NCBI GenBank assembly: GCA_964451595.1
Contig: CAYVIQ010000001.1
Span: 1 to 29,930, forward strand
Length of the DNA stretch: 29,930 bases
Reading direction: 5' to 3'
DNA from: Candidatus Woesearchaeota archaeon
Lineage (GTDB): Archaea; Nanobdellota; Nanobdellia; Pacearchaeales; GW2011-AR1
Position 1 is the stretch's first letter. Each line of letters begins with the position of its first letter. Below are positions 1,119 to 7,850 of this stretch, piece after piece. The position numbers and the translations under genes are program-made. The notes beneath the pieces were generated by a model. That model was not told the DNA's origin. It worked only from the letters and a program-made list of their open reading frames with translations, and made no database searches.

Positions 1119-1245
1119 TTGGTGGCGTGCTGAATACCTGAGTTGTGCTAGGGATTAACAAAACTCGTGAGGTTCTATCCTAGCTAATGAACTGGCAAAC
1201 AGCATACGGGAAATAAAGGTGTCATAATACTCGCTTGGCTGCCAA
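1119..1245 (+). ncRNA. Candidate structured non-coding RNA, family not recognised
   Basis: 57/127 nt G+C in an AT-rich intergenic gap. Terminal helix 1119-1126/1238-1245 (two G-U pairs, so + strand); helix 1127-1132/1200-1205; helix 1147-1155/1177-1184; apical GUGA (GNRA) loop 1167-1170. Confidence 0.6.
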
Positions 1246-1278
1246 TAAAATTAAAAACCCTTTTCCCTTTTTCGCTGT

Positions 1279-3929: not shown

Positions 3930-3966
3930 TCAAAAACTATTTAACTTCAAGTCTTTTTTTTAAAAT

Positions 3967-4476
3967 ATGATAAAAATAATTGTGGATAAAATTGCTAGAA
4001 TTATTAAAAGTAAGAAAAAACTTGAAAGCTTACTTGAAATTAAAATAACAAATCGAGGTAAGGAGGTTTATATAGAAGGTGATGCTGAGAATGAATTTAT
4101 TGCGGAGAAAGTTCTTGAGGCTTTAGATTTTGGGTTTCCGTTTTCAGTTGCAATTGAAATAAAAACCGACGATTTAGTTTTTGAAGTTTTGAATGTGAAA
4201 GAGTATACAAAACAGAAAAATCTTGAACGTGTTCGTGGGAGGATTATCGGAACCGGAGGTAAGACTTTGAAGGTACTCTCGGATTTGACTAATTGTTATT
4301 TAGAATTGAAGGAAAATGAATTAGGGATCATTGGAGGACCCGAGTTTATAAAAATCGCACAGGATGCAGTAATTTCCTTAATTAGAGGTTCTAAGACTGG
4401 AAATGTTTATTCTTACTTGGAAAAGCATAGACCTCAGCCTTTGATTGATTTGGGGTTGAAAAAGGAAAAAGAATAA
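3967..4476 (+). CDS. KH-domain pre-rRNA processing protein (Dim2/Pno1-like)
   Basis: Tandem KH folds with GRIIGTGGKT and terminal GSKTGNVYSYLE; TATTTAAC at 3938-3945. Confidence 0.9.
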   Translation: MIKIIVDKIARIIKSKKKLESLLEIKITNRGKEVYIEGDAENEFIAEKVLEALDFGFPFSVAIEIKTDDLVFEVLNVKEYTKQKNLERVRGRIIGTGGKTLKVLSDLTNCYLELKENELGIIGGPEFIKIAQDAVISLIRGSKTGNVYSYLEKHRPQPLIDLGLKKEKE

Positions 4477-4509: not shown

Positions 4510-4624
4510 GACCCGATAGCTCAGTTGGTTAGAGCGAACGGCTGTTAAGTGCGAAATCGTCGAATGGGCGATTGACAAAATCACTGGAACCGTTAGGTCG
4601 CAGGTTCAAGTCCTGCTCGGGTCG
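4510..4624 (+). tRNA. tRNA-Asn(GUU) with a 41-nt intron at position 37/38 (intron 4548-4588); CCA not encoded
   Basis: Acceptor GACCCGA/TCGGGTC, discriminator G, D-stem GCTC/GAGC, anticodon stem AACGG/CCGTT, anticodon GTT 4544-4546, T-arm GCAGG-TTCAAGT-CCTGC. Confidence 0.97.
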
Positions 4625-4658
4625 TTTATTTTTTAAACAATTTTATTCAATATATTTC

Positions 4659-5786
4659 ATGGAGAAACAAAAAGTTTTGCTGGCTTTGTCTGGAGGAGTG
4701 GACTCGAGTGTAGCTGCGCTTCTTTTGAAAAAGCAGGGTTATGATGTAATTGGAGCTTTTATGAAAAACTGGAGTGATACAAAAGATCCTTTGACTGGAA
4801 GATGTGCGTGGCGCGGTGAGAGAAAATTTGCTATGCGGATTGCTGCCAAATTAAATATCCCTTTGATAACTTTAGATTTTGAGAAAATATATCGTGAAGA
4901 TGTTATAGAAAAGATGTTTGATAAATATAAGAAAGGGATAACTCCAAACCCAGATATTGATTGCAATCAAAAGATAAAATTTCCTTTATTGTTAAAAGAA
5001 GCGAAAAGACGGGGGATAAACTTGATTTCGACAGGACATTATGCTAGAGTAAAACAAAATAAAAAAACTAAGAAATATGAATTATTTAGAGGAAAGGATG
5101 AATTAAAAGATCAGTCTTATTTTCTTTACCGAACAAAAGAATCTGAGTTGAAGCATACTTTGTTTCCAATTGGAGATCTGACAAAAAAAGAAATTCGTGA
5201 GATTGCTAAGAAAAACCATTTTCCTAATGCAGATAAAAAGGGAACTGTGGGGATTTGTTTTATTGGGAAGATTAATTTCAAAGATTTTTTAAGGAAAAAA
5301 ATTCCTGCAAAGCAGGGGAAAATTCTTGATCCGGAAGGAAATATTATCGGAGAACATGATGGAGTTTTTTATTATACTATTGGTGAAAGACTTGGTCCGA
5401 GGTATGGCTTTGAGATTTCTCGAGAAAGTTTAAATGTTTCAAATAAACCAAATGAAAAATTTCAGAAATGGTATGTTGCAAGAAAAGATATTAAAAATAA
5501 TATTTTGATTGCTGCACCAAAAGATCACCCAATAAATTTAAGACAGGATATAGTTCTGAAAAATTTTTATTTGATTTCAGATTCTAAAGAAAATTTTAAT
5601 AAAAATAAAATAAAAGTTTTCTCTCGGATAAGGCATGTTGGAGAACTTTTACAAAGTAAATTATTTTATGAAAATGGTAAATGGAAAGTTGTTTTAGATA
5701 AAGCAATTACAGGAGTTTCTGAAGGTCAGGCAATTGTTTTGTATCGAGGAGAAAAATGTTTGGGGGGTGGAGAAATTAGTTTTTAA
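4659..5786 (+). CDS. mnmA: tRNA U34 2-thiouridylase MnmA (bacterial type)
   Basis: LSGGVDS PP-loop, FMKNW, PNPDIDCN, TGHYAR, KDQSYFL, GICFIG, EGQAIVLY. Start moved from 4572 (inside the tRNA) to ATG 4659, which has TTTAAACA at 4632-4639. Confidence 0.96.
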   Translation: MEKQKVLLALSGGVDSSVAALLLKKQGYDVIGAFMKNWSDTKDPLTGRCAWRGERKFAMRIAAKLNIPLITLDFEKIYREDVIEKMFDKYKKGITPNPDIDCNQKIKFPLLLKEAKRRGINLISTGHYARVKQNKKTKKYELFRGKDELKDQSYFLYRTKESELKHTLFPIGDLTKKEIREIAKKNHFPNADKKGTVGICFIGKINFKDFLRKKIPAKQGKILDPEGNIIGEHDGVFYYTIGERLGPRYGFEISRESLNVSNKPNEKFQKWYVARKDIKNNILIAAPKDHPINLRQDIVLKNFYLISDSKENFNKNKIKVFSRIRHVGELLQSKLFYENGKWKVVLDKAITGVSEGQAIVLYRGEKCLGGGEISF

Positions 5787-6770: not shown

Positions 6771-7850
6771 TTACTTCCAGACTTCAATACCTAAATCAGA
6801 TATTTCTTTTCCAACAGGTTGGGAGTAATCATCAACATCCTTTCCAAGAACATAAGGTGATCTAACACCAGTCATAATTGTAATTACTCTTACTTTTCCA
6901 GTGAATTCCTTGCTAATTCTTGCACCGATAATTACATTGGCTTCAGGACCAAGATTTTCTGAAACAGTTCTACCGATAACGTCGAACTCTTCAAGCTTCA
7001 AATCAGGACCACAAGTTACATGAATTAAAGCTCCGCTTGCACCTTTATAATCCACATCAAGTAGAGGATTTGTTAGTGCTTGCTGAACTGCTTCCATAAC
7101 TTTGTTCTGAGTATCAGCTTCTCCAATTCCTATAACAGAAACTCCGCCGTTCTTCATAATTGAAGAAACATCAGCATAATCTAAGTTGATTAAACTAGGC
7201 AAAGTAATTGTTTCGACAATTCCCTTTATCATAGTGGATACAAGTTCATTTGCAACAGCAAATGCTTGCTCTATAGGTAATTGTCCGGCAATATCAACTA
7301 ATTTATTATTGTCTAATACGATACATGTATCTGTAACTTCTCTAAGCTCTTGTAAACCAAATTCAGCCTTGTCAATTCTAGCTTTCTCTGATTCAAAAGG
7401 CATTGTAACAACACCAATGACAACAGCTCCTGATTCTTTAGCAATTTGTGCAACAACTGGCGCAGAACCAGTTCCGGAGCCACCACCTAAACCAGCGATA
7501 ACGAAAACCATGTCAGCACCGCCAACAGCTTTTTTCAATTCGACTAAAGCTTCTTTTGCAGCTTCACGTCCAATTTGAGGTTTTCCACCAGCTCCTAAAC
7601 CCCGAGTTAATTCTTTCCCTATTAAAATTTTTTCGTCAGCTTTAGTAACACTCAAATGTAAAGCATCAGTATTTGCTCCGTAAATTGTTGCTCCATTTAT
7701 ACCTTTATTGAAAAGCCAAGTTACAGCGTTACATCCCATTCCCCCGCATCCAACAACTTTAATGTTAGCTTTTCCAGCTCTAAGTTCATCAAAATTAATA
7801 CTGTGTGTGGAAGAATTTTGTACCGCTTCTTTAGCAAAATCTAATACCAT
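6771..7850 (-). CDS. ftsZ: Cell division GTPase FtsZ
   Basis: IKVVGCGGMG, NTD, GLGAGG.P, GLGGGSGTG tubulin signature, NLDYADV T7 loop, C-terminal DLGIEV. Confidence 0.98.
   Translation of the reverse strand: MVLDFAKEAVQNSSTHSINFDELRAGKANIKVVGCGGMGCNAVTWLFNKGINGATIYGANTDALHLSVTKADEKILIGKELTRGLGAGGKPQIGREAAKEALVELKKAVGGADMVFVIAGLGGGSGTGSAPVVAQIAKESGAVVIGVVTMPFESEKARIDKAEFGLQELREVTDTCIVLDNNKLVDIAGQLPIEQAFAVANELVSTMIKGIVETITLPSLINLDYADVSSIMKNGGVSVIGIGEADTQNKVMEAVQQALTNPLLDVDYKGASGALIHVTCGPDLKLEEFDVIGRTVSENLGPEANVIIGARISKEFTGKVRVITIMTGVRSPYVLGKDVDDYSQPVGKEISDLGIEVWK

Follow-up and report, generated by a model that had tools for sequence, protein, structure and literature searches.

A predicted small structured RNA of a DPANN archaeon belongs to a family that also occurs on bacteriophage-like contigs

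A G+C-rich gap between two membrane-protein genes

We analysed a 29,930-nucleotide (nt) stretch of DNA, here called the window, from an AT-rich (31.1% G+C) DPANN archaeon of Pacearchaeota/Woesearchaeota type. The window encodes TBP, an ATP-dependent DNA ligase, Fe/Mn-SOD, a KH protein and an intron-bearing tRNA, and the ligases nearest to its own come from metagenome-assembled genomes (MAGs) named Pacearchaeota or Woesearchaeota. The element studied here is the gap at 1119-1245 on the + strand, flanked by genes for a DUF7670 membrane protein (770-1090) and an 81-amino-acid (aa) CBU_0592-like membrane protein (1279-1524); the open reading frame (ORF) of the latter starts 33 nt downstream on the same strand. 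An exact look-up of these two small proteins returned no record. On the evidence set out below, we hold it probable (about 0.65) that 1119-1245 encodes a stable small RNA of about 125 nt that stands alone and belongs to a conserved structured family outside Rfam 15.

The element is 44.9% G+C (57 of 127 positions), a value attained by only 0.7% of 127-nt windows, the tRNA at 4510-4624 among others, and its flanks stand at 24.4% and 28.3%. The first-pass annotation of this DNA had rightly picked out the gap by this contrast, and had read it as an unassigned structured RNA of the + strand, standing alone behind a promoter-like box. That description holds, in that Rfam finds nothing at the gap and the homologues covary.

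Rfam 15 gave no family at 1119-1245 when the whole window was searched at the gathering score. The first-pass annotation had proposed relaxed thresholds; a search at E<=10, covering only the 271 nt of 1050-1320, likewise gave no match at the element. For the homologues introduced below, no family was found at the compact copies in their four contigs (E<=1), at the element in contig L065 (gathering score), or in 101 nt of contig L042, ribozyme families included (E<=10). All that these searches returned over window and homologues was tRNAs and noise (AfaR, mir-81 and v-snoRNA-1, at 11-13 bits). ARAGORN placed neither a tRNA nor a tmRNA at 1119-1245, and a text search of the literature for the invariant words of the family gave unrelated primers only and no prior description. 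From these comparisons, the element is a predicted member of a structured-RNA family absent from Rfam 15. A likeness to P3 of the SAM-I riboswitch, suggested earlier, was rejected: the covariance model (CM) RF00162 is unmatched, the junction topology differs, and the neighbours are membrane proteins, ligase or tRNAs.

Homologues in a second archaeon and on phage-like contigs

We identified five distinct homologues besides the window copy: L035, L065 and three compact forms (L042, L043/L048 and L049). The family thus comprises six distinct sequences in seven copies, L043 and L048 being identical. L035 (GCA_050303855.1, a DPANN MAG from NCBI) carries a copy that is 81% identical over 141 nt in the same slot, and the gene downstream of it is the ligase itself, the 81-aa gene being missing there. 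Closer relatives, with ligases 80-86% identical to that of the window, were fetched from a large protein collection, and L035 is one of them. Neither blastn nor nhmmer found a homologue in 32 related GTDB loci (ligase 56-77% identical), where matches in L011 and L016 were coding-sequence coincidences.

The compact copies came from a scan of 241 M JGI metagenome records with a 20-nt word from a block in which the two archaeal copies do not differ. Of the nine matches, four are true homologues (L042, L043 = L048, and L049; three distinct sequences), and the other five are chance matches in coding DNA. A scan of IMG/VR with the 5' block found L065, the sole copy there; every other match was due to chance and lay in coding DNA. 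The family was not found in 50,697 GenBank phages, nor was the RNA found in 24 loci related to L065 and L043 through their neighbouring proteins.

A covariance model of the family core (CM R1) scores the seven copies at 74.6-99.1 bits and everything else in 660 kb at 21 bits or less. The window copy has every family block and scores 74.6 bits (E = 2e-12), a score that is not independent since this copy is one of the six training sequences. With four of the six distinct members on bacteriophage-like contigs, the family is new to Rfam yet not specific to DPANN, contrary to what the first-pass annotation had suggested.

Predicted architecture

The family shares an optional helix P0, a helix P1 enclosing a junction that carries P2 (UGAG/CUCG) and a variable P2b, and a helix P3. 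Its members span 72-163 nt, with a core of about 72-80 nt and a minimal form, L049, of about 72 nt. We define the family by P1 (YCUG/CAGR), J1/2 AAUACC, P2 as UGAG-loop-CUCG, AA before the 3' strand of P1, and the P3 loop AAUAAAGGUGUCAUAAUA, and label it the tRNA-array-associated AAUACC / GGUGUCAUAAUA RNA. In the window, its parts and immediate flanks are as follows.

1091-1101, + strand: TATA-like box CTTTTTATTCT, a putative archaeal promoter, conserved in L035 as CTTTTATTCT
1119-1126, + strand: P0 5' strand UUGGUGGC, pairing with 1238-1245
1127-1132, + strand: P1 5' strand GUGCUG, pairing with 1200-1205
1133-1138, + strand: J1/2 AAUACC, invariant in six of six members; AUACC (1134-1138) is a candidate pseudoknot strand
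1139-1144, + strand: P2 5' strand UGAGUU; UGAG/CUCG is invariant in six of six, and the UU/AA extension occurs in the archaeal copies only
1145-1161, + strand: L2, a 17-nt loop in which GCUAGGG (1147-1153) would kiss L2b; an AAA triloop in the phage copies
1162-1167, + strand: P2 3' strand AACUCG; AAACUCGU is invariant
1168-1171, + strand: J2/2b UGAG; the first U is invariant, and the other members read UGAG, UGAA or UAUU
1172-1192, + strand: P2b hairpin, GUUC / 13-nt loop / GAAC; UCCUAGC (1178-1184) in its loop would kiss L2
1193-1199, + strand: J2b/1 UGGCAAA; the AA before P1 is invariant
1200-1205, + strand: P1 3' strand CAGCAU
1207-1233, + strand: P3 hairpin, CGGG / 19-nt loop AAAUAAAGGUGUCAUAAUA (1211-1229) / CUCG
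1234-1237, + strand: J3/0 CUUG; CUCG in L035, absent in L065
1238-1245, + strand: P0 3' strand GCUGCCAA, pairing with 1119-1126
1246-1273, + strand: 3' flank AAUAAAAUUAAAAAC, then oligo-T runs (1261-1264 and 1268-1272)

The TATA-like box reads CTTTT(T)ATTCT in both archaeal copies, and in each a distance of 21 nt separates it from the G-C pair with which the paired part of P0 begins downstream. The T-rich element proposed earlier is retained, at 1091-1101. The usual archaeal distance from TATA box to start would put transcription at about 1121-1122, and the box would then be the promoter of the RNA. P0 itself is GGCAAU/AUUGCC in L035 and AACUUAAGUA/UACUUAAGUU in L065, and is absent from the copies in tRNA arrays; it occurs only where tRNAs do not flank the element (window, L035 and L065). 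This would fit a need to define or protect the ends of a free-standing stable RNA. Within P1, both archaeal sequences have G-C where the phage copies have C-G, and in L035 the outer G-U pair is replaced by G-C.

The enlargement of L2 is lineage-specific. Its kissing interaction with L2b comprises 7 base pairs (bp) in the window; L035 has 6 bp, and one pair shows a compensatory change from G-C to U-A. The P2b stem is AUCC/GGAU in L035, CGC/GCG in L042, CAC/GUG in L043 and UUUAAAA/UUUUAAA in L065, and is absent in L049. J2b/1 reads UGGCAAG in L042, L043 and L065, CAGCAAG in L035 and AGAUAAG in L049. The P3 loop is identical in five of the six members, the sixth (L065) having one substitution and one extra A. 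We additionally noted in L065 a 59-nt insertion into P2b (7316-7390) that holds a second L3-like motif (AAAGGUGUCAUAC) and a UGGCAAAA motif, as if part of the element had been duplicated internally.

Downstream, the 3' flank AAUAAAAUUAAAAAC (window 1244-1259; L035 about 3953-3968) is conserved though the genes that follow differ; within it, AAAAAC(C/T) corresponds to the spacer found behind the stop codon in relatives without the element. Archaeal RNA polymerase terminates at oligo-T, and the oligo-T runs after the element are a possible terminator, a possible promoter of the next gene, or both. A small peptide was considered and dropped: the short ORF from the ATG at 1188 is not conserved, an indel shifting its frame in L035.

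Conservation and compensatory change

The minimum free energy (MFE) of the window copy has a z-score of -0.16 on the + strand and -1.93 on the - strand. Being no better than that of shuffled sequence, folding energy alone does not prove the feature real, and we discarded the MFE z-score as a criterion and used comparative data instead. Across the six distinct sequences, 43-46 columns are invariant, in the blocks U.CUGAAUACCUGAG, AAACUCGU, AA.CAG and AAUAAAGGUGUCAUAAUA, and between these blocks the sequence varies while the ability to pair is kept. For counting, each sequence was segmented by hand (the segmentation restores all sequences exactly) and placed in an N-padded alignment (A2). Standard pairs form in 98.4% of 184 cells, and 19 of 47 pairs change on both sides, distributed over the helices as follows.

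P0 (closing): 7 of 10 pairs changed on both sides; three unrelated sequences
P1: 1 of 6; C-G to G-C
P2: 0 of 6; invariant and uninformative
P2b: 4 of 7
P3: 6 of 6; 100% of cells paired
L2-L2b kissing (archaeal copies): 1 of 7
J1/2-L3 (AUACC/GGUGU): 0 of 5; invariant and uninformative

None of 500 shuffles attained any of the five measures used, a control of the pair-counting tool that is not a probability. When the 3' partners were slid by 1-3 columns, pairing fell to 36-44% and double changes to 1-3. The count includes 18 G-U cells, which fixes the functional strand as +, in agreement with the strand-specific G-U pairs seen in the first reading. Since G-U pairs occur in P0, this pairing is at the level of RNA and is not a DNA inverted repeat. 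For L042 and L043, unconstrained MFE folding yields exactly the comparative fold; the MFE fold of the window differs because an algorithm that excludes pseudoknots must nest the strong kissing helix. Taken together, the comparison of sequences indicates that the folded RNA encoded in the 127-nt gap is real and has been conserved in evolution.

The helices drawn by the first-pass annotation fared unevenly. Its closing helix UUGGUGGC/GCUGCCAA (1119-1126 / 1238-1245) is present and covaries, and both GUGCUG/CAGCAU (1127-1132 / 1200-1205) and the pairing of GCUAGGG with UCCUAGC (1147-1153 / 1178-1184) are present with support from covariation. Neither L035 nor the compact forms conserve the segment CC..AGUU/AACUGG; it was dropped together with the CC/GG pairing (1137-1138 / 1194-1195), as L035 and L049 retain neither of the two. 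The supposed GUGA tetraloop does not exist, UGAG being a junction strand. A weaker 3' arm is real, as CGGG/CUCG (1207-1210 / 1230-1233) with a 19-nt loop, and the pairing that RNAfold draws for it is not. Two pairings had been offered as alternatives: UGAGU/ACUCG corresponds to P2 (UGAGUU/AACUCG), whose pairing is conserved in all six members, and that of 1131-1138 with 1218-1224 survives in part, as AUACC/GGUGU (1134-1138/1218-1222), which is possible in six of six members and invariant, and so a candidate pseudoknot only. The test for homologues and covariation that the same annotation had outlined thus came out in favour of an RNA, with homologues found and compensatory changes counted on six sequences.

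Genomic contexts of the phage copies

The compact copies of about 80 nt (L042, L043/L048 and L049) lie inside dense tRNA arrays, with 17 tRNAs in L048. Their P1 begins 3-4 nt past a tRNA-Gly, tRNA-Thr or tRNA-Ala, and the L049 copy ends 5 nt ahead of the next tRNA. L043/L048 encode an HNH endonuclease within the array, a phage-type exonuclease and DUF1508. Directly after the element in L048, a 120-nt AT-rich stretch (2430-2548) has neither a tRNA nor an Rfam match within the packed 17-tRNA array; an internal promoter or a further RNA not recognised so far may lie there. L065 is a fragment of a T4-like phage from IMG/VR, encoding primase, PhoH, NrdA/B, Hsp20 and a tail tube, and the gene that immediately precedes its RNA is for a GIY-YIG homing endonuclease. 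L071, a phage with a tail tube 97% identical to that of L065, has neither the endonuclease nor the RNA; on comparing L071 4097-6628 with L065 5830-7930, L071 is found to lack a MazG-like gene as well as the GIY-YIG gene and the RNA, and to have a 152-aa ORF in their place. The RNA may move together with the free-standing GIY-YIG endonuclease.

A catalytic RNA deserves consideration here. It would cleave itself beside the upstream tRNA and so aid processing of the 3' trailer, the archaeal copy being a domesticated or stand-alone version. The start of the compact copies 3-4 nt past a tRNA 3' end recalls theta ribozymes (PMC10879173). The family also combines many invariant unpaired junction and loop nucleotides with covarying helices and a possible pseudoknot. 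Invariant unpaired nucleotides with freely covarying helices are typical of ribozymes and aptamers. Against this, no Rfam ribozyme family is matched at E<=10 on 101 nt, and an HDV-like topology is not found, there being no 3'-terminal strand after P3 that is complementary to J1/2. The hammerhead core CUGANGA...GAAA is absent too: the CUGA sites read CUGAAUA and CUGAGAA (CUGAGUU in the window), none of which fits CUGANGA, and the hammerhead was rejected. The identity of the upstream tRNA is not fixed, and in the stand-alone copies a covarying P0 encloses the 5' end, which is hard to square with cleavage just 5' of P1. We judge a tRNA-3'-processing ribozyme less likely than a trans-acting stable RNA, and on balance unlikely, while still a live rival.

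Patchy distribution among close relatives

Seven of the eight distinct close relatives lack the element at the slot (L033, L034, L036, L037, L038, L039 and L095; L096 is a second contig with the same locus), and the slot in these is empty or holds protein genes only. Counted by occurrences at the slot among close archaeal relatives, two of nine carry the element, indicating that the archaeal copy is an accessory RNA, probably acquired horizontally, and not a core RNA. The first-pass annotation's alternative of a highly diverged core RNA does not agree with this absence from the same slot in seven of eight relatives. A spacer, AAAAC(C/T)..TTC, stands directly after the upstream stop codon in genomes without the element and 3' of it in the window and L035; this displacement indicates that the RNA and its TATA-like box behave, in these alignments, as a presence/absence polymorphism of about 155 nt. 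The inserted segment is bordered on each side by a short repeat, CAATAA in the window and ATTAA in L035, which may be an insertion signature.

The whole slot between the DUF7670 gene and the ligase (770-1524 in the window; L033-L039 and L095) is hypervariable among close relatives, being empty or holding a 131-aa transmembrane protein, DUF2165 or the RNA, and the CBU_0592-like gene, too, occurs in some of them and is missing from others. Upstream genes linked to oxidative stress (SOD, rubrerythrin, peroxiredoxin, desulfoferrodoxin and rhodanese) are likewise variable. Several genes are uncalled in the public sets, namely DUF7670 in L035 (3482-3790) and L039 (2423-2745) and a CBU_0592-like gene with a GTG start in L095 (2755-3000); apparent gaps upstream of the ligase in L035, L039 and L095 are therefore coding.

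This distribution bears on whether the element could be a cis-acting leader, such as a riboswitch or 5'-untranslated region (UTR) regulator, of an operon of the CBU_0592-like gene and DNA ligase. It precedes the 81-aa ORF by 33 nt on the same strand, lies directly upstream of the ligase in L035, and has a junction fold with invariant joining strands, all as such a leader might. However, the downstream gene differs between the window (CBU_0592-like) and L035 (ligase), the same downstream genes are retained in seven close relatives that lack the element, and the phage homologues lie between tRNA genes or beside hsp20 with no common downstream ORF, and therefore the element is not a cis-leader by our reading. 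In addition, oligo-T runs and a second A/T box separate the element from the ATG, and the closing helix ties both ends together, leaving no expression platform. We regard a leader as quite improbable.

A non-functional origin appears very improbable, whether as what is left of a decaying protein gene, as a spacer that is G+C-rich by chance or as the scar of a mobile element. It would be in keeping with the varied protein genes in the slot of relatives and with the insignificant MFE z-score, and the CAATAA/ATTAA-like border repeats are a weak hint of it. Nonetheless, tblastn of the slot proteins of L033 and L036 (131-aa and DUF2165) against the gap found no similarity in any frame, the best E being 0.13 in a 241-nt database, and stop codons interrupt all six frames. 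Conservation across archaea and phages with compensatory changes in four helices is inexplicable by decay, and the G-U pairs in P0 again place the pairing in RNA.

The annotated tRNA of the window

The tRNA gene at 4510-4624 (+ strand) has a 42-nt intron and an Rfam score of 60.7 bits. ARAGORN, in its bacterial setting, nevertheless reports zero tRNAs anywhere in the window. A listed ORF at 4572-5786 (TTG start) overlaps the 3' half of this tRNA, and its true start therefore probably lies farther downstream.

A proposed stable RNA acting in trans

Homology, helices, strand, contexts and patchy distribution together support a trans-acting stable RNA exchanged between phage-like elements and DPANN archaea. 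In this proposal, P1 would close a junction carrying AAUACC, a short P2 hairpin and an optional, variable P2b, and the P3 loop AAAUAAAGGUGUCAUAAUA would pair through GGUGU with AUACC into a compact pseudoknotted fold, which remains a candidate. In phages, the core between tRNA genes would be released by tRNA processing. In the stand-alone copies of the window archaeon, the second DPANN MAG and the T4-like phage, the extra P0 would join the 5' and 3' ends, and the element would be transcribed as a discrete stable RNA. The enlarged loops of P2 and P2b in the archaeal copies would kiss. We infer that the J1/2-L3 pseudoknot forms; the pattern of conservation points to a compact tertiary fold, with invariant loop and junction nucleotides as a binding or catalytic surface.

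The unpaired invariant nucleotides would then make up a surface for binding or activity, with which the RNA would act in trans on something that bacteria and archaea share. The machinery of translation or tRNA processing, or a small molecule, is the most plausible candidate. The reasoning is that the carriers either infect bacteria or are archaea, and that the partner should therefore be common to both domains (ribosome, tRNA-processing machinery or metabolite), or else the activity be intrinsic. RNAs with dozens of invariant unpaired nucleotides and covarying stems have often proved to be ribozymes, riboswitch-like sensors or ligands of the translation apparatus.

Several points weigh against this proposal. 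The MFE of the window copy is not significant, 82 of 200 shuffles folding as well. Only six distinct sequences are available, and the pair-count alignment is hand-fitted, its helices anchored between the invariant blocks. The J1/2-L3 pseudoknot lacks covariation, both strands being invariant. The family is rare, with three distinct sequences in 241 M JGI records, one in IMG/VR and none in 50,697 phages, so that recent transfer, rather than constraint, could account for part of the sequence invariance. Finally, a search within the window for antisense targets of the L3 loop found only the element itself.

Two kinds of archaeal guide RNA were also set aside. The C/D-box motif RUGAUGA is absent; for an H/ACA guide, P1 is followed by ACG in the window and by UCC in L035, and a conserved ANA is thus absent. 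To our knowledge, C/D-box and H/ACA ribonucleoproteins do not occur in bacteriophages, where the same RNA is found.

More speculatively, the six sequences might be the founding set of a new self-contained RNA class, either a ribozyme or a ligand- or ribosome-binding RNA, with a pseudoknotted core of about 72 nt that phage tRNA arrays and DPANN archaeal chromosomes would share nearly base for base, exchange between phages and DPANN archaea, and a shared target. This stronger claim is doubtful at present. If true, a small RNA would be swapped across the divide between bacterial viruses and archaea, with a target common to both domains. Should the family hold up, it would add a compact and highly constrained RNA fold outside the assigned classes, with an unusual host range: tailed bacteriophages carry it embedded in their tRNA arrays, and reduced DPANN archaea as a gene with a putative promoter of its own and a capping helix. 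It would also document the exchange of an RNA gene between phage-like elements and DPANN genomes. The L049 form, at about 72 nt, is small enough for immediate biochemistry and structure work. The case also illustrates that an MFE z-score alone would have discarded what appears to be a genuine structured RNA.

Comparison with known systems

The archaeal copies resemble in architecture a junction of the purine-riboswitch type, in which a P1-closed junction has pairing P2 and P2b loops. Neither sequence nor CM matches, however, and the kissing is absent in the phage copies, L049 lacks P2b, P3 with its invariant loop is extra, and the element lies outside a 5' UTR.

There is also a likeness in outline to 5S rRNA (RF00001), which the first-pass annotation had suggested. 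Both have a length near 120 nt (127 nt here), a three-way junction closed by a terminal helix, and a gene that stands alone behind its own promoter (a putative one here) in an AT-rich genome; Rfam detects no 5S gene elsewhere in the 30-kb window, and ACCUGA...AAACUCGUGA presumably gives a weak echo of helix III/loop C of Escherichia coli 5S, which serves as a lead only. In contrast, RF00001 is unmatched even at E<=10 over the 271 nt searched, and arm lengths and loop motifs differ: the 5' domain of about 79 nt has its own junction, and the 3' arm of 28 nt is a stem of 4-6 bp (4 bp in the window) with an invariant 19-nt loop, unlike helix IV/V with loop E. The same core of about 80 nt occurs without the terminal helix in phage tRNA arrays, and the distribution is patchy, the element being missing from the syntenic slot in seven of eight distinct close relatives. 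We found tRNAs only and no canonical 5S in 140 kb of related loci, a result that is uninformative on whole genomes. That the element is a diverged core RNA, 5S rRNA in particular, is scarcely credible.

ROOL and GOLLD are orphan structured RNAs that phages and prophages carry, often close to tRNA islands (PMC12286853). They measure about 600-800 nt or more and form multimeric cages, whereas the present family spans 72-163 nt; their Rfam models are unmatched here, and this family also occurs in DPANN archaeal chromosomes.

Theta ribozymes, which are minimal HDV-like ribozymes, lie within +/-5 nt of phage tRNAs and have been postulated to act in processing of the tRNA 3' trailer (PMC10879173). 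They and the compact copies are alike in being short structured RNAs a few nt from phage tRNA genes; a proximity of about 5 nt is seen in L042, L043/L048 and L049, and not in the window, L035 or L065. A pseudoknotted fold (a candidate here) and conserved junction nucleotides are further common traits. Unlike in HDV-like ribozymes, there is no nested double pseudoknot, as no P2 strand lies 3' of the last hairpin. The sole complement of J1/2 lies inside the P3 loop, and the sequences after P3 (UACC.., AACUU.., ACCUU.. and CUUG) cannot pair with AAUACC. Rfam models of the HDV type are unmatched, and the stand-alone copies are closed by P0.

For rnaC and rnaD of phage T4 (species 1 and 2), we know of no archaeal counterpart. 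Their sequences contain none of the invariant blocks of the family, and CM R1, run with filters off on an 8-kb T4 region, gave nothing over rnaC/rnaD, the best score (15.9 bits) lying in a coding sequence. They are small stable non-tRNA RNAs within the phage tRNA cluster, beside the GIY-YIG gene segB. L042, L043 and L049 share this genomic setting, and that of L065, with its GIY-YIG neighbour, is similar; rnaC and rnaD are not homologous to the family and are, by setting, its nearest analogues.

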